Assembly: GCA_028714495.1 (NCBI GenBank) | Contig: JAQTMH010000002.1 | Location: 7,219-71,218, forward strand | Length of the DNA stretch: 64,000 nucleotides | Direction: 5' to 3' | DNA from: Patescibacteria group bacterium | GTDB taxonomy: Bacteria; Patescibacteriota; Patescibacteriia; JAHIZJ01 | Position numbers and translations under genes: made by a program | Shown here: one piece after another, positions 1,125 to 62,018 of the stretch | Position numbering within the stretch: position 1 is the stretch's first letter | Layout of the letters: each line of letters begins with the position of its first letter | Notes under the pieces: model-generated | What the model was told of the DNA's origin: nothing | Databases searched by the model: none | Seen by the model: the letters and a program-made list of their open reading frames with translations, nothing else

Positions 1125-1217
1125 GATAAATGATTATACCTATATCATAGCGCATTAAACGTTTGATGAAAAGAAAAAGGGGCTCGCCGGAATTTGATTC
1201 CATTGAGCCCCACGCGC

Positions 1218-2189
1218 TTACTCGGTGAAGGGATTACTGATGATTCGATCGCGGACGATTCCGCTGAATACCTCGCGGAACAGTCCATTTGGATCAACCA
1301 CCAGCCGCGACAGATTACGTATGTCTGTGCCGCTCTGAACCTGGATCAGCTTGGAAGCGTCTCCGGTTGCCCAGACTGGCGTGGCCGGACTGGCAGTCAA
1401 CTCTCCGCCATTCTTGGTCATCACCAGACGCGCCTGGCGATTCACGCGCCGAAACACATTCGGATCATTCCGGTGGCTCCATATGCCCCCGGCTTCGCTC
1501 ATTCGCTCTAGGCGATAACGTGCAGACTTGAGCGGCGGTTTGACCGCGCTGAACCACGCGACTTCCCAGGGAACATCCGCTACTTGGGTATTCGGCGTGT
1601 AGATCATTCTTCCGGTCCGAGGACGATTCGGATCATAGGGCCGGATACCGTGTCCGCCTGCCTGGACGTGGAAGGTTGGCCGCTGGGTAGTCGGATCAAT
1701 CCAGAGAGGCCGCACATTGTAAGCCATCCGACTTCTGGTTTGGACCCTCGCTTCCTCACGCGCTCCGAAATACCACCAGGCATGGAATACTGATGCTCCG
1801 GCCACCACCTGATCCTTCTGAGAGTCATACACCACCATGATCCATTCCAGATCCTGGGGATGCGATCCCATGCTGAAGGGCAGGTAGTACTTCTGGTCAA
1901 TCGGGTGATACAGTTGATAGACTACATACCAGTACCGATTTCCCTGGATTACTTCATAGTAGATCCAGGCCGGCATTTGCGGGATTTTCAGGGCGACTGC
2001 TGGATTCTGCGCCACGTGACTCCAATCTCCTTGAAAATCAACGCGGGTTAGTGCGTCAACTCGCTGTACCTTCTGACTTGTCCCCCCTGTATCATGATAG
2101 ATCAGGGGCGAGCAGGTCCGGTACACGATGCTCCAAAGCGTCCTTTGCGTCAGTGCCATGGAACTCACCCCTTTCAGGTAAGGCGCCAA
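1218..2189 (-). CDS. Hypothetical protein, Trp/Tyr-rich, in a locally G+C-rich segment
   Basis: ORF track 323 aa with protein-like composition (YWYVVYQLYHPIDQKYYLPF, WWYFGAREE). No family recognised. Overlapping plus-strand ORFs are likely antisense artefacts of the G+C-rich DNA. Confidence 0.4.
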   Translation of the reverse strand: MAPYLKGVSSMALTQRTLWSIVYRTCSPLIYHDTGGTSQKVQRVDALTRVDFQGDWSHVAQNPAVALKIPQMPAWIYYEVIQGNRYWYVVYQLYHPIDQKYYLPFSMGSHPQDLEWIMVVYDSQKDQVVAGASVFHAWWYFGAREEARVQTRSRMAYNVRPLWIDPTTQRPTFHVQAGGHGIRPYDPNRPRTGRMIYTPNTQVADVPWEVAWFSAVKPPLKSARYRLERMSEAGGIWSHRNDPNVFRRVNRQARLVMTKNGGELTASPATPVWATGDASKLIQVQSGTDIRNLSRLVVDPNGLFREVFSGIVRDRIISNPFTE

Positions 2190-2361
2190 AAACTCGACTT
2201 CTCACGTTGAGAAGCTTGTATACTTGTCAAGGTTCAATCGAATAACAGAGCATATTATCACCTTTTGGATTGTTTGTCAATATCAGCCGATTAGACATCA
2301 GTACTCGAACCCAATACTCACTGAACCGGGTAAAAGACGATATGCTATAATTACCATATCT

Positions 2362-3807
2362 ATGGATCCAACGGAAAAAACAATTAAAGGGGAATCGCGG
2401 GAAAAATGGTATACCCAGGGTTTTAACGCGGTGCCGGCCTTTATTGTACCGAGCGCCTGGAGTGGTTTTACCATGAAATCAACACTTGGATTTGGCTATT
2501 CCAAGTTTCTTTTTCATTTCAAAAATGATTATTGCGAAATGCGTTACTTAAAATCTGATATGCGCCGTAACTGGCTGAAGATACAAAAAATATTGAAAGT
2601 AAAGCCCGACTATTTTATCAAAATGAGGCGACTTTATAAATCAAGATTTCAGGAATATCTGACGGCTTTTTCATCTATCGATCGTCAGAATTTGGCTTCA
2701 TTGTCCGATCGTGAACTTTTTAACATGCTTAAACGTTGCGTAGAAGCCCAGATTGAATCGGTTGGTACAAGCCATCTGATTGAATCAGCGGGTTCTGCCC
2801 TGGAAGCTGAATTTGCCAAACATCTTACCGAAATAGTTCGTGATAAAAAAAAGTTTAATCTATGCTTTAGTATCTTAACCACTCCCACGGCTCTTTCGTT
2901 TGTCAGCCGGGAAGAACGCGACTTGCTGAAAATTAAAAAACTTAAGTATGGACGAAGGAACGCGGCCCTGAAGAGACACTATTTTCAATATCATTGGATT
3001 CGCAACAGCTACGTTGAAGAAAAAAAACTGTCAGTGGAATATTTTTCACGCCGGCTAGACAAGCTTCAACCCGCATCAACCAATCTAGCGGCACCCCGGC
3101 GAAAAAAGGCAAAGCTGATAAAAAAACTTAGCTTAAACCGCTCCGCCGTCCAGCTGATCAAATGGATTGATACTTGCACGATCTGGCAGGACGAAAGAAA
3201 AGAAAACGTCTTACGCTCTATCACCTATCTGGGGCGCGTATTAAATGAGATTAGCCGCCGCTCAGGCCTTCCTCGTAATTATCTGCACAATCTTAGTTCA
3301 CTGGAAATGCTGAAATTAAGCTCGGTCCGTGAGATTATATCGCTAAAAAATATTTTAGCAAAACGTTCACGAGGCTGTTTTATCCTGGCTAAACCAACCA
3401 GTGAAATATTTTTCTACGGGAAGAATTACAATGCCTTAGGCCAAGTCAAGAAGATTTCCTCCCAATCTCTAGTCGCCTCCAGCGATGAACTTCATGCTAC
3501 CACCGCCAACGTGGGCACGGCGATTGGTCGAGTCATTGTCTGTAAAGGCCTTGAATCCCTGAAAAAAGTAAAGCCTGGAGATATAATAGTCACCTCTATG
3601 ACGCGACCGGAATTCGCTCCGGCATTAAAAAGAGCCGCCGCCATCATTACGGACGAAGGCGGAATTACCTGCCATGCCGCTATTGTTGCTCGTGAGCTGG
3701 GCATACCCTGCGTCATCGGCGCAAAAATTGCCACAAAATTATTTAGAGACGGTATGATTGTTGAGGTCAGGGCAAACCACGGAATAGTAAAAATACTGAA
3801 GTACTAA
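2362..3807 (+). CDS. PEP-utilising enzyme mobile-domain protein (phosphoenolpyruvate synthase / rifampicin phosphotransferase-like C-terminus)
   Basis: C-terminus GDIIVTSMTRPEFAPALKRAAAIITDEGGITCHAAIVARELGIPCVIG is the PEP-utilising enzyme mobile (phospho-His) domain. I place the start at the internal ATG 2362 (MDPTEK...), not the upstream 2224. Confidence 0.6.
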   Translation: MDPTEKTIKGESREKWYTQGFNAVPAFIVPSAWSGFTMKSTLGFGYSKFLFHFKNDYCEMRYLKSDMRRNWLKIQKILKVKPDYFIKMRRLYKSRFQEYLTAFSSIDRQNLASLSDRELFNMLKRCVEAQIESVGTSHLIESAGSALEAEFAKHLTEIVRDKKKFNLCFSILTTPTALSFVSREERDLLKIKKLKYGRRNAALKRHYFQYHWIRNSYVEEKKLSVEYFSRRLDKLQPASTNLAAPRRKKAKLIKKLSLNRSAVQLIKWIDTCTIWQDERKENVLRSITYLGRVLNEISRRSGLPRNYLHNLSSLEMLKLSSVREIISLKNILAKRSRGCFILAKPTSEIFFYGKNYNALGQVKKISSQSLVASSDELHATTANVGTAIGRVIVCKGLESLKKVKPGDIIVTSMTRPEFAPALKRAAAIITDEGGITCHAAIVARELGIPCVIGAKIATKLFRDGMIVEVRANHGIVKILKY

Positions 3808-8216: not shown

Positions 8217-8219
8217 GAA

Positions 8220-9122
8220 CTAATAAATTAAATTAATTGGATCGCCCTTGATATAAGCTTCAATATTATCAATCATCATTTTGTTCCCCACCCGGTCAGT
8301 AACATCAGTGTTGTGAGCAATATGCGGAGTGGCTAGCACTTTCGAGTGTTTGGCATATTTTATGTATGATTCGTTATGGACATCACCGAACTGAATTGAA
8401 CCGCAGTCGCTGGCAATACCGGCCAGTTTTCCTTTATCTAGGGCTCCAAACATCGCTTTTTCATCATATATTTCCGAGCTTGTTACTGTGATAAAATACG
8501 AACCCTTTTTGAATGAATTGAAAAAATTCCTATCTAGCAGCCCTTTTGTACTTTCGTTTAAACTTAAAGCGTCAACCACAATATCAGCATCTTCTATTGA
8601 ATTGATTAAATCATCACCCCGAAGAAAAAATTTAACGTTCATATCGAATGATTCGCATATTTTACCAACTCTCGAACCAACATTTCCTTTACCTAAAATC
8701 GTGATATTCTTCCCGGTTAATCCTTTTGATGCCTCCGGTCGCCTAGTCTTCAAATTAAGAACATTGAGATAATTAGGCAATTCCCTAAACAAATTTAAAA
8801 TCATCGCAACTATCCACTCGCTAACAGCATCTTTATTACAGCCCGGACATCTGGATACTTTAATATTTCGAGCTTTTAATCTTTCGAGATCAAAAAATCC
8901 AACTCCTACAAAAGGTAAAGAAATAAAAATATCTTTTAGCTCATATACCTTTTGCTTTAAACCAAATTTTCCCGTACAAATAATATCAGCATTTTTACAT
9001 CTTTCTAGCCACTCGTCTGGTGTTTCGGCTAAGTCCTCATAATATTCAACTGTCCCTAATTTATTTAGTCTTTCCCTCTCCTCATTATTTAAATTTAAAT
9101 TTTGGGCGATTACGATTTTCAT
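8220..9122 (-). CDS. D-isomer-specific 2-hydroxyacid dehydrogenase family protein (NAD-binding)
   Basis: Rossmann motif ITILGKGNVGSRVG and catalytic-region ATPHIAHNT typical of D-2-hydroxyacid dehydrogenases. Confidence 0.7.
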   Translation of the reverse strand: MKIVIAQNLNLNNEERERLNKLGTVEYYEDLAETPDEWLERCKNADIICTGKFGLKQKVYELKDIFISLPFVGVGFFDLERLKARNIKVSRCPGCNKDAVSEWIVAMILNLFRELPNYLNVLNLKTRRPEASKGLTGKNITILGKGNVGSRVGKICESFDMNVKFFLRGDDLINSIEDADIVVDALSLNESTKGLLDRNFFNSFKKGSYFITVTSSEIYDEKAMFGALDKGKLAGIASDCGSIQFGDVHNESYIKYAKHSKVLATPHIAHNTDVTDRVGNKMMIDNIEAYIKGDPINLIY

Positions 9123-12951: not shown

Positions 12952-13842
12952 CTATTTATTACGCAGTAGATTTATTATTATATGATAGGTTAATTTTGCC
13001 GCTAAAAAATTCGGGGCGTCGAGACCGGGAATCGGCTTTAATTCCACGACATCAGCGCCGACTAGATTGACCTTGGCCGCGACTTTATTGATAATCTCCA
13101 AAACCTGATACCAGCCCAAGCCGCCTGGTTCGGGCGTGCCAACTGACGGCATAATCGACGGATCCAGGCAATCAAGGTCAAAGGTTAAATAAACGTTTTT
13201 GGTTAATCCTTTTAAAATCTTTTCAAGTGGCGGAATCTCCGGCGCAAAATAGATATTCTTTAATTTCTTCGCCTTGATATATTCCCGCACCTCTGGATTC
13301 ATGTTCCGAATGCCGATCGAGACAAAAGGTATTTTCAACTCACTGATCCGCCGCATAGTACAGGCATGGGAATATTTTGTTCCATCAAGCGAATTCATCA
13401 AATCAGTATGGGCGTCTAAGTGGAGAATTGAGATATCTCTGTATTTCTTCCTGAGCGCCCTGACCGCGCCGATGGTAATCGTATGCTCGCCACCAAGCAT
13501 TAATGGAATTTTATTGTGCCTGATTACTTCATTATTAACCGCCTGTTCAATTCCTGCTATCGCTTCCAGCGCTGAATTTTTCGAAACATTCACTTCATCT
13601 AGCGTAAATATATCAGTCGCGTGTAAACCTATGACTTCCCCGGTTTCTTTCGGATCATCCAGCTCGTCCAGTTCCCGCGAACTCTCAATGATCGCCTGCG
13701 GTCCGGCGCTCGTCCCGGTTCCGGATGAAACGGTTGCTTCATAGGGAATGGGTAAAACAACGACTTTAGCGGCGCTGAAATCCTGCCTTTTAATCGTGCC
13801 GAAATTAAACGGCCAAAGATCGTAAAGTTTTTTCATTATCAA
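12952..13842 (-). CDS. speB: Agmatinase / ureohydrolase (arginase family)
   Basis: Arginase-family Mn-binding motifs GGEHTITIG, LHLDAHTDL and TFDLDCLDPS. Confidence 0.75.
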   Translation of the reverse strand: MIMKKLYDLWPFNFGTIKRQDFSAAKVVVLPIPYEATVSSGTGTSAGPQAIIESSRELDELDDPKETGEVIGLHATDIFTLDEVNVSKNSALEAIAGIEQAVNNEVIRHNKIPLMLGGEHTITIGAVRALRKKYRDISILHLDAHTDLMNSLDGTKYSHACTMRRISELKIPFVSIGIRNMNPEVREYIKAKKLKNIYFAPEIPPLEKILKGLTKNVYLTFDLDCLDPSIMPSVGTPEPGGLGWYQVLEIINKVAAKVNLVGADVVELKPIPGLDAPNFLAAKLTYHIIINLLRNK

Positions 13843-14965
13843 AATTCTTCTTAATCTTCTTTTTAGCCTTATCTAATCTTTCAATCGCGCCCTTAATCAA
13901 TAGCGGCCAGACCATGGTGGCGTCGCTTAAAACCTCCGCTTGCTGGCCACCGTTTTTTTGGTCAACAAACTTCCCCCATGATACTCCCTCGGAATAGGTA
14001 CAACCGGATAAACCGCCCCAATTAACCGGCTCGGGACAAATTCTTACTCCGTATTTGTATGGTTTCCAATAAGGACTCTTTTCATCAAAATATTTTTCCT
14101 TTTTTGATTTATCCACGATACGGTAGCGTATCAAATCCAGATACGGCGCGACTTGCTGAGCCCAATTGCGCGGCACGCCTCCGCCGATGGTAAAAATCCC
14201 GGTAGTTTTTTGGCGGAAAATCAATTCGGTAAAGTGCTCCAGGTCGGCGAAAGGATTGTAATTAAGCGGTTTTTTATTGGCTAGTTTTCGCCTTCTGTTA
14301 TAAAGAGCGAAATCGAGACCCAGCTCTGAATCAGTAAGCGCCGGGATATAAACCGGGATGTTGTTCTCAAAAGCGCTTTTTAATATGCCCCGTCCCTGAC
14401 TTTGCTTATGTAGATATTCACCAATACTCTGAGACAATAGGCGCGAGCAAATCGTATCCTCAGGAGTGAATTCCACGAATACTTTGTCCACAATTTCATT
14501 AAGGTCGTCTAGGTTTTTCTCGACCTCCAAAGTGTCGTAAACCCGATCAAAACCCTCCTTGTATAATACCTTATCCGACACGTCAAAATCATACTTGAAG
14601 TGAGTCATGCCGGTATTTTCGACCAGTCCGTGGGTAATTAGCGCTCCAGTAGAAACAATCGCCTGAACCATTCCTCTTTCGATCATCTCACAGATAATCA
14701 AGCCCATCTTGGCCACCGTCATGGCTCCAGATAAAGTCATAACCACGAAACAGTCCGGATCGGTAACCATATTATAAAATACGTCAGCCGCCTCGCCCAG
14801 TTTCCTCCCGCCAAAGGACGTCTTCGACATAGCCTGAAGCAACTCATCGGCATTATGAATCTTATTTAAATCCAACGATTCAACCGGCGTGAAATTAAGG
14901 TGCTTTGCTGAATTTGCCCCTCCAGGCGATTGTGCGCGTTTCCTCATAGTTTTATTACCAACCAA
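13805..14965 (-). CDS. Deoxyhypusine synthase-like protein (DHS / homospermidine synthase-like, NAD-dependent)
   Basis: MVTDPDCFVVMTLSGAMTVAKMGLIICEMIERGMVQAIVSTGALITHGLVE matches the DHS family core. Confidence 0.7.
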   Translation of the reverse strand: MVGNKTMRKRAQSPGGANSAKHLNFTPVESLDLNKIHNADELLQAMSKTSFGGRKLGEAADVFYNMVTDPDCFVVMTLSGAMTVAKMGLIICEMIERGMVQAIVSTGALITHGLVENTGMTHFKYDFDVSDKVLYKEGFDRVYDTLEVEKNLDDLNEIVDKVFVEFTPEDTICSRLLSQSIGEYLHKQSQGRGILKSAFENNIPVYIPALTDSELGLDFALYNRRRKLANKKPLNYNPFADLEHFTELIFRQKTTGIFTIGGGVPRNWAQQVAPYLDLIRYRIVDKSKKEKYFDEKSPYWKPYKYGVRICPEPVNWGGLSGCTYSEGVSWGKFVDQKNGGQQAEVLSDATMVWPLLIKGAIERLDKAKKKIKKNFDNEKTLRSLAV

Positions 14966-16537: not shown

Positions 16538-16906
16538 CTATTTACTCGCTTGTGGATAACTTTTATCAAAATTTTTATCTGAAGACTTCCTCAATTTTCG
16601 CATCCGACGCGAATATTTTTTTTCTTTGTAACGAATTAGTTGGTTGGCTATTTTTTCATAAGCCAAGTCTATCGCCTCATGCATTTCCGAAGCCTTGATT
16701 CCGGTTTCCAGCGTTTTTTCCGGTAAATATAGCCAAATTTCAACGCGATTGATATCTCCAGATTTTTGATTCCGGTCAAAGTCAAGCTCTACCTTCGCTT
16801 TCAAAATTTCCCGATAATATTTTTCCAGATGAGAAATTTTATCAGTCACGTAACTTTTTAGCGAAGGCGTTAATTTAAAATTTTTTCCTGTTAAAATTAT
16901 TTTCAT
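16538..16906 (-). CDS. hpf: Ribosome hibernation promoting factor / RaiA (sigma-54 modulation protein family)
   Basis: MKIILTGKNFKLTPSLKSYVTDKISHLEKYY...VELDF is typical of HPF/YfiA. Confidence 0.8.
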   Translation of the reverse strand: MKIILTGKNFKLTPSLKSYVTDKISHLEKYYREILKAKVELDFDRNQKSGDINRVEIWLYLPEKTLETGIKASEMHEAIDLAYEKIANQLIRYKEKKYSRRMRKLRKSSDKNFDKSYPQASK

Positions 16907-24544: not shown

Positions 24545-25100
24545 AAAAGGACTGTCCAGGAGACAGTCCTTGTGAAAAAAATGGGGGCTGGGTAGCCAGC
24601 TGGCCTGACGAAGAAATCCGACCTTGCTCGGAACGCACCCCTAGGGTTCTGACCCTGCCAGATTCAGGCTTCTGTCGTCAGCCAATGCCGCCCGCCTGCT
24701 GTCTGGCGCGCTCCCAGCCACCCACAACGAGCGAATTTATAAAAATATATTAAACTATTCTGTTTTTAGTGTCAAGAAAAGTTATCAACACACAAATATT
24801 GAACCATTGGATTACCAGGCTGAAAAAGAAAAACCCCCGACGCGCGCATCGGGGGCACCCTACATTCCGGCACGGCAACTTCGGCCGTGACCGGTTGTCA
24901 GCGAGAAATCGGGTGGGTTTTCCTCGCTACCCGCCGGACAAAACATCCTGGAAAGGCGGCAGGCCAGCCTAGAACTCCAGGAACCCAGTATGAGGACATT
25001 GGTTGCCTTAGAAGGTTGTTGCCCATGACGAGCCACTGGGAAGCTCCGGGCAATCCGGCAACCGTCTCTCCGCAAGGTATAGCCAGTGTTGCTGGTTAGC
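24545..25100. other. G+C-rich non-coding, highly structured segment (candidate structured RNA(s)), with a minus-strand intrinsic terminator at about 24810-24842
   Basis: Only short ORFs on both strands. Hairpins GGACTGTCC...GGACAGTCC. Nested stems GGCUGGG...CCCAGCC and CUGACGA...UCGUCAG. CCCCCGAcgcgcgcaTCGGGGG is followed by an A-run on plus, which is a U-run on minus. I could not match tmRNA, RNase P or SRP consensus. Confidence 0.2.
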
Positions 25101-25456
25101 TATGGTGCTCTTGCCACGACACGCTCACGACGAACTGTAAAATCCCCGCCGCAGTTGTAACAATGGCATGTTACGTCGCGAGTCTGGTAGATGTCACCAC
25201 AAGACGTCTTTTTGTAGTTTCCCTCAGCGCTTCTCATGCCTAAAGCCGCCGCTATGCTGTAGCCCGCGCAGATGCAGCGCGCGTCCTCAACGTGTTCAGG
25301 ATTCACAACAGCCCACCTCTTGAGTTTCACGTTGTACGAATTGCATTCGGGACAGGCTGTACCTCTGAAAAAAGCAACCATGATTCTAAAGAGCTTGGAC
25401 ACATCAGCCTCCTTCAATTTGGTTCCTGCATAGGCCCCTGGGAAGACTTCAGTCAA
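25100..25456 (-). CDS. Hypothetical Cys-rich (zinc-ribbon-like) protein in a G+C-rich segment
   Basis: 118 aa with CPEC...C.C...CHCYNCG cysteine pattern. Protein-like composition. Uncertain. Confidence 0.35.
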   Translation of the reverse strand: MTEVFPGAYAGTKLKEADVSKLFRIMVAFFRGTACPECNSYNVKLKRWAVVNPEHVEDARCICAGYSIAAALGMRSAEGNYKKTSCGDIYQTRDVTCHCYNCGGDFTVRRERVVARAP

Positions 25457-34953: not shown

Positions 34954-35035
34954 AAATAAACAAAAAACGGGTTAGATTCCCGTCAACATCAATGATAGCA
35001 TGACGTGATTTTATGTCAAATGTAAATCATATAAT

Positions 35036-35055
35036 TCACCTTTTAGTTAAAAGGT
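35036..35055 (-). terminator. Intrinsic terminator hairpin CACCTTTTAGTTAAAAGGTG downstream of the EamA gene
   Basis: Perfect palindrome 26 nt past the stop at 35081, U-rich tail on the minus strand. Confidence 0.5.
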
Positions 35056-37431: not shown

Positions 37432-37595
37432 ATAACAATAATAACATATACCTGTTTCGCGGGCGAATAAGACCTGTCCCGTCGTAGCATGGTATCTTGT
37501 CCACCTACGTAATTTGCTAATTCATTCAGACTGGTGACTTTCTGTAAATAAAAAAGTCCCACTTTTGGGACTTGCGCACATTTCCTCTGAAGGTG

Positions 37596-38066
37596 CTAGG
37601 CGTGTCTCTCGGCGAACCGACCACGGCCATATCCGGGAAACCGCCGGAAAACCCTTGGCTTGAATGGACAAACAACTGTCACCGATGGGAGCATCGAACA
37701 CGCACCGTCATGAATCACCGGATAGGTAGCACTGATCAGAACGTCATCACCAGGCGAATCGCCAAGTACAATCACCGCCGCCTCGTCAGCAATGGGCTGA
37801 CCGAGTTCCATCTTACGCCATCGCTCCGGATTCACGCCGGCGGGCGGTTCCGGAGTCGGATCCAGGATATCCGGCTCGCCGCTTCCCTCCCTGACCATCA
37901 CCGCCAAAACACTGCTCCGGTCCACATCCGCGATGCACACCATGCCAAGCAAACTCTTTACTTCAGGTAACCGCTCTAATCCCGTAGAAGCCACCACCGG
38001 TCCCTCCTTTGCCAATTTACGCAGCTCGACAGGCTGCAACATGGCGTTGGTATTATATATCACCAT
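37596..38066 (-). CDS. Hypothetical protein in a short G+C-rich segment (coding strand ambiguous)
   Basis: 156 aa minus ORF overlaps a 132 aa plus ORF. Local G+C is clearly above the flanks. No family recognised. Confidence 0.3.
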   Translation of the reverse strand: MVIYNTNAMLQPVELRKLAKEGPVVASTGLERLPEVKSLLGMVCIADVDRSSVLAVMVREGSGEPDILDPTPEPPAGVNPERWRKMELGQPIADEAAVIVLGDSPGDDVLISATYPVIHDGACSMLPSVTVVCPFKPRVFRRFPGYGRGRFAERHA

Positions 38067-38207
38067 TGAAAAGCGTCAAGTCGTTTTTAGTAAATTTAGC
38101 AAATATAATCATCATTACCATTTAACCGTAGCACCTTACTTCATGATTTTTAACTTTTAGTAATACAAAAAAACGGGCTAGACCGTTTTACCTTTGATTA
38201 TTCAATA

Positions 38208-44899: not shown

Positions 44900-45973
44900 C
44901 TAGGTTTGTGCTATTTGGGAAGCCCGATCCGATTTGGCTCCTGTTCCGCTTTCATTTCGGCCGTTCAAGCCAAGCTCTTGTCTGATCCGGCTGGCCAGTT
45001 CGCCAAGCCGACCATCCATCGCTTCAGGAGTCACAATAAGTCTCTGCCAATCTGCTCCGTTACGATAGGTCACGATTACGCCAAGCTGGCCAGTTTCGAC
45101 TTCAGTCGGCTGCGAGGCGTCATTAAGTCCGTCATGTTCAGCCGCTCTCACAGAACTCACTCCCGGGATTTCACTGATCAAACGGGCGATCTCACGACAA
45201 CCGGTGATGAACCGGTCATCGCAAACGCGTCCTGCCTTGCCATCTCCCCTGGTCAGCGCCAATGCCTGGCTTCGACGAATCATGCTGTTCAGATCGAAAT
45301 GCCGCCGACTTAGAATCTCGGTTCTCAGGGCAGCTGGATTCATCGCGATCGTCGTCACGACTCGAATCGCTCTTTTGATGCTTCTTCCGTGGAACGTGAC
45401 CAAAAGTTCATAGCCGCGAATTTCGACTTCCTTACTGACTTCGCTGGCAATCCGGTCCCTGACTATAACCTCGCCCGGAATCACCTGGGCCACGCCGCGC
45501 CAACGACTTAGCTGTCCGCAGAAGATATCGCAGGCGATGGTTTCCTTGTCAACCAGTCTAACCAGACCCCGATTGGGCAATTTGTCATAACTGGCACCCA
45601 GACCAAAACCGCCTTCGAGAGCGATCCCACTTTCAGTCATGACCTGGCTGTATATGCCCTGAATGTCAATCCGCGAGCCAACCATCCGAATCAATTCCCA
45701 CATCAGCACTGAGCTGGTTACTCCGCTGATCGGTATGACATTAAACCGGCGGATTGTCTCGATCCCAATCATGGTTCCCTTAACCGAATACCCATCCTCC
45801 AGAAAACAGACGTTTGGGACTCTCAACTCCCCTTTTCTGGGTTTAACGGACTCAAGGAGTTCGACCGCCTGGACATGGGGCAACCCACTCAGAAATTCTA
45901 ACAGTTTCTCAACTGCCCTTTCGTCGATCATGGCGCCTTTAGGCTCCATTTCGTTCGTGGAAGCAGCGTCCAC
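44900..45973 (-). CDS. Hypothetical protein, G+C-rich segment
   Basis: 357 aa with protein-like composition. Overlapping plus-strand ORFs are probable antisense artefacts. Confidence 0.4.
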   Translation of the reverse strand: MDAASTNEMEPKGAMIDERAVEKLLEFLSGLPHVQAVELLESVKPRKGELRVPNVCFLEDGYSVKGTMIGIETIRRFNVIPISGVTSSVLMWELIRMVGSRIDIQGIYSQVMTESGIALEGGFGLGASYDKLPNRGLVRLVDKETIACDIFCGQLSRWRGVAQVIPGEVIVRDRIASEVSKEVEIRGYELLVTFHGRSIKRAIRVVTTIAMNPAALRTEILSRRHFDLNSMIRRSQALALTRGDGKAGRVCDDRFITGCREIARLISEIPGVSSVRAAEHDGLNDASQPTEVETGQLGVIVTYRNGADWQRLIVTPEAMDGRLGELASRIRQELGLNGRNESGTGAKSDRASQIAQT

Positions 45974-47723: not shown

Positions 47724-48670
47724 AGATTTTTTACCTTTCTCTGGAACCTTTTTGCGATGAAAGATAAAATGATGCCTAGAGCTGCTAGCCCATATCCAAT
47801 AGTAACATTGTACCAACCCAGAAAATTTCCTAGAAAGCCGAAGACAATCAAAACAATCGCGGTGATTCTTAGAATTAGGATAGTTTGAAAAGAAGACAAC
47901 CTCTTGCCCTTAGTTTTCTTTTCGCCTTGATCAATTATCGCTGGCTGATCTCCGCGAATCATATTGACAAAGGCGCTTTCTAAATCCACCGCCCGAGTAT
48001 GCTGCTTGATCGCCGCGACTGTATCCACCGCGATAATCCTGCCTTTGTGCATTATCGCCACCCGGTCGCAGAGCTTTTCCGCGTCAGCCATTTCGTGGGT
48101 TGAAAGAATTACCAGCCTGCCTTCTCCCCTGACCCGCTGGATAAACCTCATGACTGTTTGCGAAGCTAAAACATCCAAACCGGCAGTCGGCTCATCGAAA
48201 ATTATCACTTTTGGGTCGTGAATCACTGATCGGGCAATGGCCAGTTTCTGCTTCATGCCGGTTGAATATTTGCCAGATCGTTTATCGGCAAAATCCCGCA
48301 TATCCAATAAATCAATCAATTCATTTATCCGGTTTTCCAGCTTTTCGCCCGCTAAGCCATAGAGTTCGCCGAAATACCTGAGATTCTCACGGCCGGTAAA
48401 ACGTTCATAGACTCCAATTTCAGTAGTTAATACGCCGACATTCTGCCTAACTTCTTTGGATTGTCTAGAAATATCAAAACCAGCTACCTCGGCTGTACCT
48501 GAGGTTGCCTGTAAAACCGTGGCAATGACTCGAATCGTCGTGGTCTTCCCCGCGCCGTTTGGCCCCAATAATCCAAATACTTCCCCGGATTTAGCCTGCA
48601 AACTTACATTATCAACGGCTGTAAAGGTATTAAATTTCTTGACTAAATTCTTGATATCGAGAAGTAACAT
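47720..48670 (-). CDS. ABC transporter ATP-binding protein with unusual C-terminal two-helix membrane extension
   Basis: Walker A GPNGAGKTT, signature YSTGMKQKLAIA, Walker B IIFDEPTAGLD. C-terminal ILILRITAIVLIVFGFLGNFLGWYNVTIGYGLAALGIILSFIA. Confidence 0.8.
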   Translation of the reverse strand: MLLLDIKNLVKKFNTFTAVDNVSLQAKSGEVFGLLGPNGAGKTTTIRVIATVLQATSGTAEVAGFDISRQSKEVRQNVGVLTTEIGVYERFTGRENLRYFGELYGLAGEKLENRINELIDLLDMRDFADKRSGKYSTGMKQKLAIARSVIHDPKVIIFDEPTAGLDVLASQTVMRFIQRVRGEGRLVILSTHEMADAEKLCDRVAIMHKGRIIAVDTVAAIKQHTRAVDLESAFVNMIRGDQPAIIDQGEKKTKGKRLSSFQTILILRITAIVLIVFGFLGNFLGWYNVTIGYGLAALGIILSFIAKRFQRKVKNL

Positions 48671-49249
48671 AGTCCTATAGCATATCAAATTTATACTTAT
48701 TGTTCAAACCAAGGTACCAAAAAAGAGGAACAACGGAGTGTTTCTTTCCTACCGTGGCGGTTCAACCGAAGCGGTTTTTTTCTACCCGGCTTAGCCGATT
48801 TTTTACTTCCGACTTCTACTCGGCTTTAGCCGAGGGTCTCAAAGGCTTTAGCCCTGATAGTCTATCATAATCTATCCAACCCTTACTATCCTCACCAGTA
48901 TCAATAACTGAATATACCAATTTCCGTGCGTATTCTTCACCAAATTTATCTTCAATCTGTCGATAACTAGAAAATGGATTTTCTCTCAATTCCTGAAAGG
49001 TATTTACCTCTTTTCACCACACTACCTTCTAACTGACTTTAGTCAGGTTGGTAATTTAGTAGCGATAACCCCGCCCCCATCCTAACATAGGCCGCAGATG
49101 ATAGACGCTAAACCGCTAGGCGGCTTCGCCTTATGACCATTATATACCAAGGCTGTGGTTGGGATGGAGACGGGGTTATTTGCGGTGACTTCGACGTCGG
49201 CCTGACTATGGTTATTTACTTTTACCCATTATTTTTGCTAGTTCTATGC

Positions 49250-49645
49250 AAATAAAAAATGGGGCACCGAGTATGATCCCCTTACTTACCTTAGCTCGGT
49301 CGCCCCATGCCCGGGTTTCGTAATGAACAATCGCACTCGCTTGCGCGCTATATCAGTCCCGATTTGCGGGACGACTCCCGGTTAAAGGAGGGAGGATTTA
49401 AACCTCCTGCGCACTAGGCAGCCAACCTGACGTGAAAGGGTGAAACACCTTTTCCTCGCCCGCGAGGCTAGCCAGTCACCTCCTTTTCTCTTTGCCGTCG
49501 CCAGCACGGCGAGGCAAACCACACGCGCTTGCTTGTGGACTCTCGGACCCTAGGGACCCGAGAATGAGCATGCCTAGAGCCGTTTCCAGCCTAGGCACTA
49601 CTATCATATATTAATATAAAAACTTGTCAACCTAGGGGGTCGGGA
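49250..49645 (-). ncRNA. Candidate structured non-coding RNA (unassigned family) with its own promoter-like element and intrinsic terminator, immediately downstream of tRNA-Pro
   Basis: Roughly 400 nt, G+C-rich, with no credible ORF. Many stems (GCCUAGGCUGGAAACGGCUCUAGGC, GGAGGUUUAAAUCCUCC, GCGAGG...CCUCGC). GUGAAAGGGUGAAACACC-like motif on the opposite strand. Terminator-like GGGGAUCAUACUCGGUGCCCC plus U-run near 49255. TTGACA-N16-TATGAT on the minus strand near 49600-49640. Confidence 0.25.
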
Positions 49646-49681
49646 CAAGTTTGAAAATATGGCATTCCCACCTTTCTCCAG

Positions 49682-49755
49682 TCGGGGTGGAGAGACTTGA
49701 ACTCTCGACCTCACGCACCCGAAGCGTGCGCTCTAGCCAACTGAGCTACACCCCG
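49682..49755 (-). tRNA. tRNA-Pro (anticodon CGG)
   Basis: Reverse complement CGGGGTG-TA-GCTC-AGTTGGCTA-GAGC-G-CACGC-TTCGGGT-GCGTG-AGGTC-GAGAG-TTCAAGT-CTCTC-CACCCCG-A folds as a canonical 74-nt cloverleaf. No encoded CCA. Followed by a hairpin/T-run terminator. Confidence 0.85.
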
Positions 49756-50014: not shown

Positions 50015-50551
50015 ATGAAAGGGGTGGTCATTATGACTAGCCGCAACGGTCTAGCGAAAGGGCAGTCCGGCAGACTCCCGAATAGGAAAACAGTGGAGGA
50101 GATCAACCGAATCAATCGGGGGCTCCATTCCATGTACATCCTGTTCTCTGTCTTCACCGGCGTCTACGTAGCTCTGATGTGGTTCGAGGCGTTTCAGAAG
50201 GTAGGTTTCCTGGAGTGCGTTTACGCTGCACGCTGGACAGGGATCTCCTATCCAGCTTGCGTGGCCTACAACGCGTTCCTGGCTATCTACGTCTACAACA
50301 AAGAGCAAACACGCAAGTGCTTGCTCAAACGAACAACTCGGCGTGGTGGTCGCTGGGTTGCGATCTGGTGGCTGAGCCTAGGTACCATCTTGCTGCTGCA
50401 AGTCTTCGTCACTGGCGTATCGCTTCCTCACCTGCTCGTTCCGCAGTGCATCATTGTGCTATTCGTCTTCTTTGGCAGCGAGGCATTCAAGAAGCGATTC
50501 ATCAAGAAGATGGGCGGCCAAGCAGATGACATGATTGACACAACTTGCTAA
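50015..50551 (+). CDS. Membrane protein, hypothetical (G+C-rich segment)
   Basis: 178 aa, four hydrophobic helices. Promoter upstream. Confidence 0.5.
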   Translation: MKGVVIMTSRNGLAKGQSGRLPNRKTVEEINRINRGLHSMYILFSVFTGVYVALMWFEAFQKVGFLECVYAARWTGISYPACVAYNAFLAIYVYNKEQTRKCLLKRTTRRGGRWVAIWWLSLGTILLLQVFVTGVSLPHLLVPQCIIVLFVFFGSEAFKKRFIKKMGGQADDMIDTTC

Positions 50552-50654: not shown

Positions 50655-51833
50655 TTAGGACGCCATCGGCCATTCATCAGCGTCTGTCTGATCAGCCGGA
50701 TTATCCGTCTGACCAAATTCATTCGCTGACTGACCAAAGAGCATTTCACCGGCGATTTCCTTCAAGGTGGCCAGGACGCGATCATGGCCAATCCCTGATT
50801 CCTGGGTTCTTGTGTAATCAACCGCCCTGATTACCACCTCGAAATCACCAACCGAATTCCACTCCTTTAGGTGACAGGCAAGGCGATCCAGTTCAGCCGG
50901 ATCAGCCAGAGCGCTTTCAACCAGTATCTGATCCAGTACGCGCCAATCACCTACAACCGCTACCAGTTTGTCCGCCTGTCTCTCCCAGAAGCGGCGGCGA
51001 GCCTCCTGGACCATATGGTAGGCAATCCAGAAAAGCGTCGTGTACACCGGGTCGGGATCCCTGCGCCTGAGCCAGTCAAACATTATCTGCGTGATCTCAT
51101 GGGCCTTGACTAGGCGCTTGAGTGGAGGCTTTTTGCCCCAGCCACGCAGGATTTCGACCAAGCGGTGATGATCCTGCGGATCACCCGGCAAATCGCACGC
51201 GTAGGCGATGTCTGAAAGCACCCTCCAACCGCCCACATCAACCGCGATGTTATGCAGGCAGTCTCCCGGACTGACCGCGGCTGAAGCCAATTGATTCTGG
51301 AGGCGGCTTGTGAACAACGGCTGAGTAGTTTCAGCAGGGTTATGCCCCTTCCCGCCTAAATCAGGAAGTTCAGTCTGTCTGTCAGGTTCAGCGGTTTGGT
51401 CAATCGACGACCCTTTCAGCTCATGAGTTGGGCCTGACCGTTCCAGATTGCCCTGATTGTGACCGATGGCGCGGAACAACGCGGCATTCACAATCAGCCG
51501 GAACAGCGCTGGATTTACTGACCGAGGAATGAAACCGTCGGCTCCGCACTGTCTCGCTGCTTTACGGCACATCGCGTGGTTCTGACCGGCCGGGATATTA
51601 GCCATCAGATAAATCGGGGGCCGCAAAATCAGCCTAAGCTTCTTGCTTTCCTGGACCAGGCGCAGACCAGGCGATTCATCAGATTCGGCTAAGACTAGAT
51701 CGGGCTGAAAGCAAGAGATCATAGTCAGGGCTGAGGCCAAATCGGACGCGCCGCAGACCTCAACCCCAGCCAGCAGATCGGAGTAACTAGCCAAACGACC
51801 CAGATTGATGTCAAATACCAGGATTCGTTCCAT
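50655..51833 (-). CDS. Response-regulator receiver (REC-like) domain protein with large uncharacterised C-terminal domain
   Basis: N-terminal RILVFDIN...PDLVLAES...PIYLMANIP...GADGFIPRSV follows the CheY-like (beta-alpha)5 pattern. The phospho-acceptor position is atypical. G+C-rich. Confidence 0.45.
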   Translation of the reverse strand: MERILVFDINLGRLASYSDLLAGVEVCGASDLASALTMISCFQPDLVLAESDESPGLRLVQESKKLRLILRPPIYLMANIPAGQNHAMCRKAARQCGADGFIPRSVNPALFRLIVNAALFRAIGHNQGNLERSGPTHELKGSSIDQTAEPDRQTELPDLGGKGHNPAETTQPLFTSRLQNQLASAAVSPGDCLHNIAVDVGGWRVLSDIAYACDLPGDPQDHHRLVEILRGWGKKPPLKRLVKAHEITQIMFDWLRRRDPDPVYTTLFWIAYHMVQEARRRFWERQADKLVAVVGDWRVLDQILVESALADPAELDRLACHLKEWNSVGDFEVVIRAVDYTRTQESGIGHDRVLATLKEIAGEMLFGQSANEFGQTDNPADQTDADEWPMAS

Positions 51834-52118
51834 GACCCAACCTCCTCTTTGTGACTCATAATAAAAAGAGCCTCATTAGAGGAGGCGTCATTTCTAGGGA
51901 CTAATCCTTATTGTCCCTGAGCTTTGTAACTATAACCTTGATGCCGGTTACGCTACTGGCTCCCGATGAACTGTACCCCTTAGCTAAAGCTATGGGGTAA
52001 AGCGTCCAAATTCAGTTCATCGTTCGACGCCTCATCATTACTACCCTAGTGTTTCCAGGATAGTAAAAAAACATTAGCATATTGTTTTCAGAATGTCAAG
52101 CCCCTGCGGATACTGCCC

Positions 52119-52492: not shown

Positions 52493-52534
52493 AGCGCCCC
52501 AAAGACCATCTGGTCTAGGGCGCTCTTTTCTTTG
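52493..52534 (+). terminator. Intrinsic terminator GAGCGCCC-(nested loop)-GGGCGCTC plus TTTTCTTT
   Basis: 8-bp G+C stem with an inner AGACCATCTGGTCT hairpin in the loop, followed by a T-run. Confidence 0.5.
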
Positions 52535-52576
52535 CCATAGAACCAATAAAAGTGATGAGTAGAAGATAATCCTTTG

Positions 52577-52612
52577 GTAACTACATTATCGAAGCCTAGG
52601 GCAAAGACCCGC
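52577..52612. repeat. Direct repeat copy 1 (about 36 nt, GGTAACTACATTATCGAAGCCTAGGGCAAAGACC)
   Basis: Near-identical copy at 52745-52780 (GGTTATTACATTATCGGAGCCATAGGCAAAGAAC). Each is followed by a local hairpin. Confidence 0.5.
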
Positions 52613-52744
52613 CGAAGGCCGCTTTGAATAACCTATTTGATGGTGAAAAGAAATTACTGCTTAGTGAAGTAAGTGTAAATAACTGGTGACCGGAGGCGGG
52701 TAAACAATTTGCTACGCCAAAAGGTAAATAAATGCCATAATTTG

Positions 52745-52780
52745 GTTATTACATTATCGGAGCCATAGGCAAAGAACACC
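52745..52780. repeat. Direct repeat copy 2
   Basis: See copy 1. Spacing about 168 nt in a non-coding G+C-rich stretch. Confidence 0.5.
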
Positions 52781-52965
52781 CGTACCACTTCGGGTACGGG
52801 GCAGGCTGCCGAGCCCCGGCCTTAAGTGCCGAGGGGAGGCGGGTATGGTTAATTAATCACCCCCCGGTTGATATTGGAGATGCCGGATCAGGTCCGGCAT
52901 GACTACTGTGTGGTATCTTCAAGCCAAAGCAAATTCCGCCCAAGGTTCAAGCACTTAATAAAAAA

Positions 52966-53003: not shown

Positions 53004-53051
53004 TTAGCAAGTGCAAGGATCATTGCCACAGGTTGGGCATGGTTCTGTCAT
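53004..53051 (-). CDS. Cys-rich micropeptide, 15 aa: MTEPCPTCGNDPCTC (CPxCG knuckle)
   Basis: AAGGAGA lies 8 nt upstream of ATG. Possible -10 TATAAT with adjacent TG at 53087-53094 (minus strand); the putative -35 is poor. In-frame stop 7 codons upstream, so no longer ORF exists. Strong terminator immediately downstream. Not in the ORF track (<60 aa). Confidence 0.35.
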   Translation of the reverse strand: MTEPCPTCGNDPCTC

Positions 53052-54140: not shown

Positions 54141-54785
54141 TTATTCCAAAATCAGTTTAGTATAAAGCTCAAAAAGCAGATGTTTCTCTCCTCGGTATGG
54201 AATAACGATATTTTTATTAAAATCTGCATGCTTCATATTTTTTATCACTATATTGTCTGCTCCTTCGATTGTTTTACGGCCAAATCCAAAATGTAATAAT
54301 TTACGACCTAGATTTAAAAACATATCTTCGTTTGAAAAAATATTCGTTATCTTGACCGGTTGCGGAAAATCCACGAAGCTTTTTTTATGAGGAGTCGCAA
54401 CATAGATAAGATGGATAATACCCCCTAGTTCTTTAGAGTATCTGAGTGAATCTTCTGCAACAATTCCCCCAAGGCTTTTGCCTAATAGTACTACTCGATC
54501 ATATCCAGGTCGTTTCTTTAAAAATTTAGAAAGTTTTTTAGCGGCTAGATTGATAAAAATAATATTGTAAAATCCCTTAATCCATTTGAAAACATGTATA
54601 TCAATTTCTGGGGTATGTTTTTCAATATGATCTTTTAAGACGTAAGCCCAGGCATCTCCTTGTCTATCTACGCCAAAGTAATTATAGAACTTGTGAAAAT
54701 ATTTTTTCAAAAATCGAGGGATTCCAGCTCCCGATCCAGGAATAATTATTAATAAGGTTCGCATGAAGTTATTATTTATAAACAA
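54141..54785 (-). CDS. Alpha/beta-hydrolase (lipase/esterase-like, GXSXG)
   Basis: N-terminal LLIIIPGSGAG oxyanion-hole-like region and nucleophile elbow LLGKSLGGIVA. Confidence 0.55.
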   Translation of the reverse strand: MFINNNFMRTLLIIIPGSGAGIPRFLKKYFHKFYNYFGVDRQGDAWAYVLKDHIEKHTPEIDIHVFKWIKGFYNIIFINLAAKKLSKFLKKRPGYDRVVLLGKSLGGIVAEDSLRYSKELGGIIHLIYVATPHKKSFVDFPQPVKITNIFSNEDMFLNLGRKLLHFGFGRKTIEGADNIVIKNMKHADFNKNIVIPYRGEKHLLFELYTKLILE

Positions 54786-59349: not shown

Positions 59350-59350
59350 A

Positions 59351-60514: not shown

Positions 60515-60747
60515 AGCGAGTTGATTAGTTATAAAATATTAACATTTCAACACCAACGCGCGCCACCGGACACATACCGCTGGAGCGATTGTGCTAAAAG
60601 GCATTATTTGAATTATAAGTCATTAACTCATACTGTCAAGGCGACACCATATTAACTTGACTTTTTCTACTCCCAAAGGTAAGTTAAAAAGCTCAAAATA
60701 AAGCGAAAACCGGTCTTTCATAACCTATAGACCAAAGGAGGGGGCTT

Positions 60748-61923
60748 ATGCAAAGGACTAGCATGCAAGGAGTGGAGCGGGTGTACTGTGATGTCTGCAT
60801 CCACGCCCTAGTTGCGGCCTGGCGTGAACTGCTGGATTCACCAGCTAGCGAAACGCTCAGACATACCAAATACGGCAAGGGTGATACGCTGGGTCTGGAC
60901 GCAATCACCGAAATCATTATTCACGACCGGCTGTGTGACTTTGACCGCCATGCCATTCTGGTCACCGAGGAATTGGATGATGATGCCCGCGAGCGCTGGC
61001 CAACTGACGCTGAACCGATCCGGCAGCCGCTCATGTTCTTCTCTGACCCGACTGACCGATCCAGACAACTCAGAGAATACATCGAGACAATCAGCAGGGA
61101 AACGCCCATCAGAAGGCTCGGACTGCTCATGGGCCGGGACAAGGGCATCCAGGTCTGGGAAAGAATGTTCGAGAAACCGGCAATGATCACTGGAGCTACT
61201 TCTTCCATCACCTGCGTGCGCAAAGGCCAGATCATCTTCTCGGTCATTCTCAACATCGTCACCCAGACCATTTTCGTGGCGACTCCACTGGGCAATGTCG
61301 TGATGCGCCTGCCCCGGTTCGGTGATCCAGTCTGCGATCAAGTCGACCTGAACTATGTTCTGGGGCATGGCCGGCCACTGATTTTCCCGCCAGCTAAGAT
61401 CACCTGCCAACGGCCAGATGACTTCAAGCGTTTTGTTACCTTCCTCGGTAAAGAAGACTATGAGAAGAACTTTATTGACAGTATGGTCTTCGTTGAGAAT
61501 CCCGATGACTTTCTGCACCACACCCTACCTGGCGGACCGGCAAGAATCCTCTATCTCTCCGAGCTCCAGCGTGGCCATGGACCGATTGGCTTTATCATGG
61601 CCAATGGCGAAAAGATCGGCGAATGGATCCACTGGCTGGCCTTTGCCAAATTCGCCATGCGCGAGCACGGCGGCCACCAGCTCAGGATTTTCGAGATCGC
61701 CATTCCCCGACCCCATTACAAAGACGGCGTCCTGATGTCCACGGCTCCGGCTTACAGCATTTTCAGCCAGCTTGGTTCGACTGTCTATCTGGATGTCAGC
61801 CGGTTGCGGACCTTTGAGACACCGAGCCGCTTCCGCTCCATGCTCGTGGTAGCGCCGTTTGACAACGAACGGATCGCCCACATCATGCGGCAGCACTGCT
61901 ACCGCGAAATCGACCTGTCTTAG
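60748..61923 (+). CDS. Hypothetical protein, G+C-rich segment
   Basis: 391 aa. Strong RBS AAAGGAGGGGG 5 nt upstream of ATG. Minus-strand ORFs 60838..61521 and 60921..61295 are probable antisense artefacts. Confidence 0.5.
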   Translation: MQRTSMQGVERVYCDVCIHALVAAWRELLDSPASETLRHTKYGKGDTLGLDAITEIIIHDRLCDFDRHAILVTEELDDDARERWPTDAEPIRQPLMFFSDPTDRSRQLREYIETISRETPIRRLGLLMGRDKGIQVWERMFEKPAMITGATSSITCVRKGQIIFSVILNIVTQTIFVATPLGNVVMRLPRFGDPVCDQVDLNYVLGHGRPLIFPPAKITCQRPDDFKRFVTFLGKEDYEKNFIDSMVFVENPDDFLHHTLPGGPARILYLSELQRGHGPIGFIMANGEKIGEWIHWLAFAKFAMREHGGHQLRIFEIAIPRPHYKDGVLMSTAPAYSIFSQLGSTVYLDVSRLRTFETPSRFRSMLVVAPFDNERIAHIMRQHCYREIDLS

Positions 61924-62018
61924 TACAAACCTACCCTCGTTAGTAATAACGGGGGTGTTTTTATTTCGATAAATAGTATTAATTAGGCTGGAGTAATTAA
62001 CTAACCTATTATTTCGAT

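Follow-up and report, generated by a model that had tools for sequence, protein, structure and literature searches.

Along a 64-kb stretch of a 258,610-bp contig in a Patescibacteria metagenome-assembled genome (MAG; locus tags PHI73_, proteins MDD53420xx), hereafter the window, guanine-plus-cytosine (G+C) content peaks in eight short segments, here called islands 1 to 8. These peaks are probably small accessory units whose G+C excess is set by what they encode, and most of them seem to be old residents of the genome rather than recent imports whose foreign composition is fading. On this interpretation, self-contained accessory units would be scattered among core operons, six of them as one- or two-gene cassettes and several with their own promoters and terminators. 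The encoded proteins would be lineage-restricted, fast-evolving, poor in lysine and rich in arginine, glycine, alanine and proline, and the remaining signal would come from RNA genes, namely a tRNA-Pro, a candidate RNA of ~340 nt and a riboswitch leader. The high G+C content would thus have three causes: amino acid composition, third codon positions that follow the genome-wide trend, and RNA structure. The units would also differ in age, with islands 1 and 5 predating saturating divergence, islands 4, 5 and 7 predating a strain split and only island 3 being recent, and islands 1 and 5 would stay G+C-rich in relatives of different background G+C. Composition alone would misdate most of the islands as recent transfers.

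The window has an overall G+C content of 0.460. The eight segments flagged in a first-pass annotation have G+C contents of 0.504-0.562 each and 0.526 pooled, compared to 0.447 in the remaining window, and the eight flagged protein genes occupy ranks 1-8 among 66 genes (0.529-0.569). In 1-kb steps the standard deviation (sd) of G+C is 0.044 across the window, vs 0.016 under a binomial model, and 21.8-kb chunks of the window give an sd of 0.038-0.046, which places them no lower than the 90th percentile of 32 loci of ~21 kb used for comparison (median 0.026). The G+C mosaic is therefore real in its core, but the borders first drawn around it are loose. The segments at 24.5-25.5 kb (0.504) and 41.05-42.45 kb (0.513) are weak or too wide, as is that at 50-53 kb, which reaches 0.515 overall with a final kilobase at 0.47. 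Nor do the islands rise from a uniformly AT-leaning background. Five unflagged core stretches match them in 1-kb G+C content (0.51-0.52), at 10.0-11.3 kb (SecA), 18.3-19.9 kb, 28.5-29.5 kb, 43.7-44.8 kb and 56.8-57.8 kb (TypA), and the SecA, TypA, RarA and nucleotidyl (GMP-type) transferase genes have G+C contents up to 0.50-0.52. Low-G+C patches as strong as the islands also occur, as single genes at 0.31-0.35, so the mosaic runs both ways. Four such genes (8220-9122, 16538-16906, 21570-21950 and 54141-54785), in which G+C at third codon positions (GC3) falls as low as 0.23, lie as far from the mean as the islands do, and those tested keep the core dinucleotide signature.

Table 1. Location and content of the eight G+C-rich islands and the units within them (positions in the window; aa, amino acids; ORF, open reading frame; K/(K+R), lysine as a share of lysine plus arginine).
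Feature	Position	Strand	Content
Island 1	1218..2189	-	323-aa W/Y/R-rich protein; G+C 0.558, K/(K+R) 0.24
Island 2	24586..25456	-	small Cys-rich zinc-ribbon-like ORF and 240-nt G+C-rich 3' stretch
Island 2, second unit	~150 nt, promoter at 24775-24747	-	putative unit from promoter to terminator, read from sequence
Island 3	37450..38207	-	758-bp single-gene insert; 156-aa ORF 37596-38066, G+C 0.569
Island 4, HEPN-like ORF	41139-41660	-	173 aa, G+C 0.554
Island 4, signal-peptide protein	41951-42397	+	148 aa, G+C 0.535
Island 5	44900..45973	-	357-aa Arg-rich protein; G+C 0.534, K/(K+R) 0.24
Island 6	49255..49755	-	RNA genes
tRNA-Pro(CGG)	49681-49755	-	in island 6
Candidate structured RNA, ~340 nt	49255-49600	-	G+C-rich, downstream of tRNA-Pro
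Island 7a	50015..50551	+	178-aa multi-pass membrane protein; G+C 0.529, GC3 0.676
Island 7b	50655..52100	-	promoter, c-di-GMP-II aptamer 51933-52043, RBS-sequestering hairpin, 392-aa gene 50655-51833 (RBS, ribosome-binding site)
Island 8	60748..61923	+	391-aa divergent IMPase/FBPase-fold protein; G+C 0.554, GC3 0.673

The islands also differ from the rest of the window in gene content. A Pfam match was found in 47 of the 58 non-island genes examined, including those for SecA, TypA, RarA, L10, L7/L12, UppS, Fpg, TruB, two FG-GAP/YkuD L,D-transpeptidases and ABC transporters. No island ORF matches Pfam, in agreement with the first-pass annotation, which had described the islands as carriers of hypothetical proteins and of structured RNAs. 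The latter are present as a tRNA-Pro and a cyclic di-GMP (c-di-GMP)-II riboswitch.

Signatures other than G+C content set the island genes apart as well. The dinucleotide distance (delta*) to the core mean, calculated per gene, is 177-237 in all eight islands and 32-151 in 32 core genes. A pooled delta* of 196 was discarded in favor of the per-gene values, since it mixes genes of heterogeneous G+C and is inflated. The relative abundance of AA/TT is 1.36 in G+C-matched (0.50) and 1.32 in other core genes vs 1.05 in the islands, that of GC is 1.22 and 1.21 vs 1.01, and that of CG is 1.17 and 1.20 vs 0.97. Tetranucleotide z-scores of the pooled islands correlate with those of the other genes at r = 0.36, compared to 0.66 ± 0.05 in 300 size-matched random sets, none of which is as low. 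The k-mer signature is thus not uniform along the window. In addition, the island proteins are Lys-poor and Arg-rich, with a mean K/(K+R) of 0.33 vs 0.605 elsewhere.

Amino acid composition accounts for the G+C content of the islands, but for only about half of their dinucleotide deviation. Among 57 non-island genes, GC3 rises with the G+C content of first and second codon positions (GC12; r = 0.58), and seven of the nine island ORFs have a GC3 within ± 0.03 of this core regression. Back-translation of the island proteins, based on the codon usage seen in the G+C-richer core genes, gave G+C contents of 0.50-0.58 and a GC3 of ~0.60. These values essentially match the real ones, except in the 178-aa and 391-aa genes.

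The age of the islands can be read from a sister MAG (PHH01_; GCA_028717285.1), which has 94-99% DNA identity to PHI73 over aligned blocks and in which islands 4, 5 and 7 occupy matching positions. Between PHI73 and PHH01, the pooled synonymous divergence (dS) is 0.098 in the islands and 0.098 in the core. This equality indicates that islands 4, 5 and 7 predate the split of the two strains and have been inherited vertically since then. The 357-aa protein of island 5 is 97% identical in PHH01, with a ratio of non-synonymous to synonymous divergence (dN/dS) of 0.22; the 173-aa protein of island 4 is 80% identical (dN/dS 0.52), and its 148-aa neighbor is also present. The 178-aa protein of island 7a shares 98% amino acid identity between the strains. 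Island 3 has a different history. The gap between RarA and UppS measures 758 bp in the window, 60 bp in PHH01 and 75 bp in L097, a metagenomic, Patescibacteria-like relative, and the absence of island 3 from both points to a recent insertion in the PHI73 line. Its layout comprises its own AT-rich upstream region, the 156-aa ORF and terminator hairpins, with no visible target-site duplication. As judged from these alignments, in which no PHH01 contig corresponds to islands 2 and 8, island 3 is the sole demonstrable strain-specific insertion among the islands.

The same strain comparison bears on whether the island ORFs are genes at all. Stop-poor, G+C-rich non-coding DNA can give long ORFs on both strands, and shadow ORFs of at least 100 aa are indeed ~2-fold enriched in the islands, which contain 11 of 32 of them in 16% of the window (binomial p = 0.009), five in island 8 alone. 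It is nevertheless very unlikely that the island ORFs are spurious on this account. The pooled dN/dS is 0.41 in the islands and 0.11 in the core; a ratio below 1 identifies the island ORFs as real genes that are under purifying selection and evolve fast. In the 392-aa gene, 27.5 synonymous differences stand against 42.5 non-synonymous ones (dN/dS 0.47; neutral ratio near 1:3.2). Moreover, the 391-aa protein belongs to a large family and its structural model is a confident one of inositol monophosphatase (IMPase)-like fold, the 323-aa protein has a syntenic orthologue, and RBS, promoter and terminator elements flank the ORFs. The antisense ORFs themselves were considered as overlapping genes and rejected, given their modest enrichment and the scarcity of stops in the other frames of high-G+C coding sequence. 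The statement that nearly all overlapping ORFs lie in the islands does not survive the count given above, and no correlation was found between gene G+C and the longest antisense open frame (Spearman rho 0.05).

The lineage is poorly sampled, as the closest TypA among 185,579 GTDB species representatives is only 70% identical (the window's own MAG is not in that set). In 80 GTDB loci anchored on TypA, neither synteny nor an island homologue was found. An exhaustive HMMER protein search was performed with the 323-, 391- and 357-aa proteins as queries. Two syntenic relatives were found. The first is a contig of another Patescibacterium, KKG41 (L094), which is syntenic with the window in SecA (74% identity), NUDIX genes, an L,D-transpeptidase (67%), a PEP-utilizer (28%) and a LiaF-TM gene (55%). 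The second, L097, is syntenic with 32-48 kb of the window (L,D-transpeptidase 73%, RarA 83%, UppS 79%). The proportion of synonymous differences (pS) between the window and both relatives is 0.75-0.91 (KKG41: 0.79-0.91), so that synonymous sites are saturated. In a second metagenomic relative (L098), the interval from permease to transpeptidase holds other genes and is uninformative.

Across this divergence, islands 1 and 5 remain in place. The best homologue of the 323-aa protein is the hypothetical protein KKG41_01775 (P0045; 43-46% identity), whose gene lies between the PEP-utilizer and LiaF-TM genes, as the island 1 gene does in the window. With a G+C content of 0.495 vs 0.33-0.41 in its neighbors (locus G+C 0.389), this gene is ~10 G+C points above its own background, its GC3 is 0.465 vs 0.26-0.39, and its product has a K/(K+R) of 0.33. 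Because synonymous sites are saturated, the raised GC3 argues against a fading donor imprint. A class-1 fructose-bisphosphatase (FBPase) gene at 18630-19613 of the KKG41 contig is a second outlier there (G+C 0.498 and K/(K+R) 0.32, with a locus mean G+C of 0.389), that is, the same kind of G+C- and Arg-rich island as the island 1 orthologue. At the position of island 5 in L097, between the ABC-2 permease and the L,D-transpeptidase, there is a 581-aa ORF with 24% identity to the 357-aa protein over 271 aa (E = 6e-7), and it is the G+C-richest gene of that locus. The HMMER search otherwise gave only remote matches to the 357-aa protein. The expectation that island proteins would have their nearest homologues outside the lineage is thus not borne out for islands 1 and 5.

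The first-pass annotation had read the islands as lateral acquisitions or recent insertions from a donor of higher G+C content, plausibly the host of an episymbiont, that have yet to ameliorate. This reading is partly supported. The G+C, dinucleotide, tetranucleotide and codon signatures are distinct from those of the core, island 3 is a strain-specific insert, and hundreds of genomic islands and transferred genes have been reported in Patescibacteria, with exchange mostly within the phylum (PMC12455944). The family of the island 8 protein is patchy in distribution and appears mobile. Its members include Parcubacteria proteins and a copy beside SecY-Adk-Map-RuvX-RecO in a 44% G+C contig. A homologue with 46% identity also occurs in a ~60% G+C, metabolically rich metagenomic contig (L088-L090, 10001-11158), where it forms, at 0.508 and together with an adjacent 84-aa ORF at 0.475, a low-G+C island against surroundings of 0.60-0.68. 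A low-G+C island in a 60% G+C genome indicates that the island 8 family crosses lineages. As a general account of the islands, however, recent import is unlikely. It is contradicted for islands 1, 4, 5 and 7 by the equal dS of islands and core and by the G+C-rich positional homologues of islands 1 and 5 in distant relatives despite saturation, and most islands are old by these measures. The closest homologue of island 1 is from Patescibacteria, and the genome's own codon usage reproduces the G+C content of the islands.

Evidence of transfer machinery or of a donor was also not found. No island ORF matches an integrase, transposase, phage or conjugation family in Pfam, PADLOC or PHROGs, and there are no mobility genes among the 47 Pfam-annotated neighbors. 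PADLOC returned a single weak match, of the 173-aa protein to PDC-M05B, and PHROGs nothing credible for the island ORFs. The 391-, 323-, 357-, 156- and 392-aa proteins have no match in viral contigs, and the 156-aa protein has none in PLSDB plasmids. A tRNA-Pro lies near islands 6-7 and a tRNA-Trp near island 8, but no second 3' end of either tRNA (≤3 mismatches) bounds any island as an att repeat. At 62672-62711, 89 nt from the tRNA-Trp gene (62762-62835, minus strand), the 3' part of this gene recurs as a degenerate copy of 40 nt (80%). The copy lies between the tRNA-Trp gene and the nitroreductase and island 8 genes, may be an old integration scar and bounds no island. No donor taxon or high-G+C host was identified for any island, and the donor clade is undefinable for the island 8 family, which includes Parcubacteria. 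Nothing therefore points to a high-G+C host as the source.

If a donor of very high G+C content had passed the islands to a common ancestor long ago, and amelioration had not yet run its course in any descendant lineage, this would explain why the orthologues in relatives are shifted the same way as the islands of the window and why a residual signature exceeds amino acid composition. We regard such an ancient transfer as improbable, to much the same degree as recent import. Synonymous turnover is complete at the pS values given above, so third positions should be at equilibrium, and fast protein evolution at the pooled island dN/dS should speed amelioration. GC3 also lies on the core regression for most islands.

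As the source is a MAG and the islands look foreign in signature, chimeric joins of G+C-rich pieces from another organism during assembly or binning were considered too. Such an artefact is extremely improbable. Logan contigs, built separately from the runs SRR22315508 and SRR22315509, match the window at 100% identity across island-core junctions and cover 37.1-48.1 kb, 49.7-52.6 kb and 52.5-63.8 kb of the window; contigs from the two runs cross both junctions of island 3 at 100% identity. The presence of islands 4, 5 and 7 in place in GCA_028717285.1, and of islands 1 and 5 syntenically in the relatives, speaks against it as well.

Several observations weigh against old residence and encoded content as the full explanation. 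GC3 is 0.11-0.17 above the core trend in islands 7a and 8. In the KKG41 contig, GC12 does not account for the GC3 of the island 1 orthologue, as the L,D-transpeptidase of similar GC12 has a GC3 of 0.26. The island 8 protein is far more Arg-rich than its closest homologues (K/(K+R) 0.26 vs 0.55). Back-translated island genes have a delta* of only 105-148 vs 177-237 in the real genes (core controls 63-88), and the unexplained half, which reflects codon or context choice, gives the best indication left that the islands had a history of their own. Codon usage differs between islands and G+C-matched core genes: the share of TTC is 0.64 vs 0.35, that of ATC 0.61 vs 0.43 and that of GGC 0.35 vs 0.51. 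The relative synonymous codon usage (RSCU) of the two halves of the islands correlates at r = 0.73 with each other and at 0.62 with the core, and this likeness between the halves makes a foreign or shared history still likely for at least some islands. The comparison also draws on few relatives, two being syntenic. Islands 2, 3, 4 and 7 have no homologue outside PHI73 and PHH01, although none of the relatives covers island 2 and no deep single-protein search was made with the 156-, 173-, 148- and 178-aa proteins. The leftover codon and dinucleotide signature, together with the mobility of the island 8 family, suggests that the accessory units ultimately derive, probably, from ancient gene exchange, either among Patescibacteria or with unknown partners.

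Three of the island proteins could be tied to known folds. The 323-aa protein of island 1 appears distantly related in form to Nep1-like (NLP) proteins, with moderate scores. A profile of its family matches only NLP proteins among PDB structures (E 1e-4 to 6e-3), over the region that contains H110, D113 and E115. The top 15 Foldseek matches of its AlphaFold2 (AF2) model, whose mean predicted local distance difference test (pLDDT) score is 69.7, are all NLP (probability 0.99-1.0), followed by a sharp drop; their template modelling (TM) scores are 0.22-0.48. H110, D113 and E115 are invariant in nine sequences of the family, and this H-x-x-D-x-E pattern resembles the NLP heptapeptide GHRHDWE. Unlike NLPs, the protein has no obvious signal peptide, no match to Pfam NPP1 and an extra C-terminal half, and the likeness comes with TM-scores of 0.3-0.48 and moderate model confidence.

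The 391-aa protein of island 8 belongs to a family of more than 130 representatives (best identity 58%). Its AF2 model has a pLDDT of 95.1 and a predicted TM-score (pTM) of 0.94, and Foldseek returned 125 PDB matches at E ≤ 0.001. The top matches are all SuhB, IMPase, FBPase or histidinol-phosphate phosphatase (HPP), with a probability of 1.0 and TM-scores to the target of 0.6-0.73, as expected of an alpha-beta-alpha-beta-alpha sugar-phosphatase fold, and the family profile matches a PDB IMPase at E = 1.6e-5. In 54 sequences of the family, E74, E75, D100, P101 and D103 are invariant and S105 is nearly so. The invariant acidic residues align to IMPase motifs in the profile match, placing acidic motifs (xxEE, DPxDxS/T) at the metal-binding positions of the superfamily. 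The protein differs from IMPases in its length (~390 aa vs ~260 aa), in its 9-14% identity to solved members and in the absence of a Pfam Inositol_P or FBPase match even at E ≤ 5. Since it matches no curated family, it is filed as a divergent, undescribed branch of the superfamily and not as a member of a named family.

Island 7b comprises the predicted riboswitch unit. The aptamer matches the c-di-GMP-II model (Rfam RF01786) over positions 1-84 of 84 with 58.9 bits vs a gathering score of 53.5 (E = 1.6e-10), and is identical in PHH01, with the same score, within a 95% identical block. A promoter-like TTGACA...TAATGT lies upstream, and the aptamer ends 100 nt before the ATG. In the minimum free energy (MFE) fold of the leader, CCUCCUCU pairs with the RBS AGAGGAGG (z = -5.57). 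This arrangement suggests that c-di-GMP may control translation of the 392-aa gene, turning it either on or off. The N-terminus of the 392-aa protein matches PDB response-regulator receiver (REC) domains at E = 6e-4, and a search of 5.8 billion clusters returned the protein from PHI73 and PHH01 alone. No GGDEF, EAL or HD-GYP gene is present in the 64-kb window, and full-text searches of a paper library retrieved no paper tying c-di-GMP riboswitches to Patescibacteria or the candidate phyla radiation (CPR). The unit resembles known c-di-GMP-II riboswitches in its full-length aptamer above the gathering score and its position in a 5' leader between promoter and RBS-sequestering hairpin. It is unlike their known settings in occurring in a Patescibacterium and in preceding the gene of an otherwise unknown REC-like protein, with c-di-GMP being the predicted ligand.

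A micro-ORF at 53004-53051 (minus strand) encodes MTEPCPTCGNDPCTC, 15 aa with four cysteines. It is preceded by an RBS-like AAGGAG and an AT-rich promoter region, and a strong terminator hairpin follows directly. A ~40-90-nt repeat (core TTTGCCYWRGGCTYCGATAATGTARTWACCAAA) has two copies (52526-52613 and ~52741-52790) in variable non-coding DNA upstream of the riboswitch unit. In PHH01 the repeat is found at another locus, beside the HEPN-like gene (L087, 5693-5783), and it behaves like a small mobile repeat.

It is conceivable, though quite doubtful, that the islands form a coherent, maintained host-interaction toolkit whose G+C- and Arg-rich state is at a gene-specific equilibrium. Its parts would be a putative cytolysin resembling NLPs, one secreted and one membrane protein, an IMPase-like phosphatase and a riboswitch-controlled REC-like regulator. 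The equilibrium would be held either by selection or by genes arriving again and again from an outside pool, possibly that of the host. The attraction of this idea is that it would explain how a G+C-rich state survives saturating divergence. If it were true, the riboswitch would be the first evidence of c-di-GMP sensing by a Patescibacterium, conceivably of the host's own c-di-GMP.

In island 6, the ~340-nt unit is a candidate new structured RNA. A promoter-like TTGACA...TATGAT and a terminal hairpin with U-tract can be read from its sequence, and its predicted fold, with an MFE of -156.8 kcal/mol (z = -4.55), is more stable than that of any of 100 shuffled sequences. In PHH01 the region has an aligned counterpart inside a 95% identical block. 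Rfam gave no match at E ≤ 10 for 49.23-49.69 kb. RNase P, SRP and 6S RNA were considered by eye and set aside, as no convincing motif was seen.

In island 2, a putative promoter (TTGACA...TATGAT) near 25495-25467 and the RBS AAGGAGG followed by a GTG near 25405 can be read from the sequence, with terminators at 24856-24833 and 24571-24547. Matches of its ORF to Pfam zinc ribbons are below threshold (E 0.02), and nothing credible was found by Rfam at a permissive threshold in 24.48-25.56 kb. In island 4, the 173-aa protein had been called HEPN-like; its HEPN score in Pfam lies below the cut-off (E = 0.14, 12.8 bits vs 22), and the string RLPSAH that it contains is by itself not diagnostic of the HEPN Rx4-6H motif. 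The corresponding position in L097 holds two unrelated 114-aa ORFs.

Other differences between the strains were noted outside the islands. A 91-aa ArsR/HTH gene (34678-34953) lies between two CACCTTTTAGTTAAAAGGTG palindromes 369 bp apart (34688-35037). The whole unit is absent from PHH01, making it a second single-gene presence/absence difference, and it is not G+C-rich. A 20-nt perfect palindrome (core ACCTTTTARYTAAAAGGT) has four intergenic copies, at 6305, 24505, 34665 and 35034; these score as bidirectional terminators and may also be recombination points of the ArsR cassette. The interval 48641-49251 spans ~610 bp in the window and 69 bp in PHH01, the extra part consisting of a low-G+C ORF of ~68 aa and a long inverted repeat. 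Conversely, a HAD-hydrolase gene that separates the ABC ATPase and permease genes in PHH01 (L082, 5243-5895) is absent from the window. Genes of the arginase/agmatinase, deoxyhypusine synthase and Orn/Arg decarboxylase families lie in a row at 12952-16064 (minus strand), forming a polyamine-type cluster with a bacterial deoxyhypusine synthase homologue.

These findings overturn no current understanding, and the mosaic is mostly an ordinary feature of a known kind. Their interest lies first in a caution for island callers applied to Patescibacteria MAGs, as the peaks found by scans of base composition are routinely taken for recent horizontal transfer. They also yield, from a poorly sampled lineage, a predicted riboswitch-controlled REC-like protein, an NLP-like protein, a branch of the IMPase fold and an unclassified candidate structured RNA.

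The island genes have much in common with ORFans, being short, narrowly distributed, fast-evolving relative to the core (dN/dS as above), without a Pfam family and placed in isolated transcription units. ORFans are usually AT-richer than their genomes. The island genes are instead G+C- and Arg-rich, and three of them can be tied to known folds (IMPase-like, NLP-like and REC-like). The islands are also similar to the genomic islands of Patescibacteria (CPR), which are short segments of atypical composition with accessory or hypothetical genes in streamlined MAGs (PMC12455944), and the mostly within-phylum exchange described for these fits the Patescibacteria homologues of islands 1 and 8. They differ from them in lacking mobility genes and att sites, in being single-gene units of 0.5-3 kb, in being G+C-richer and not AT-richer than the genome, and in including two stable syntenic residents that have kept their place across saturating divergence.

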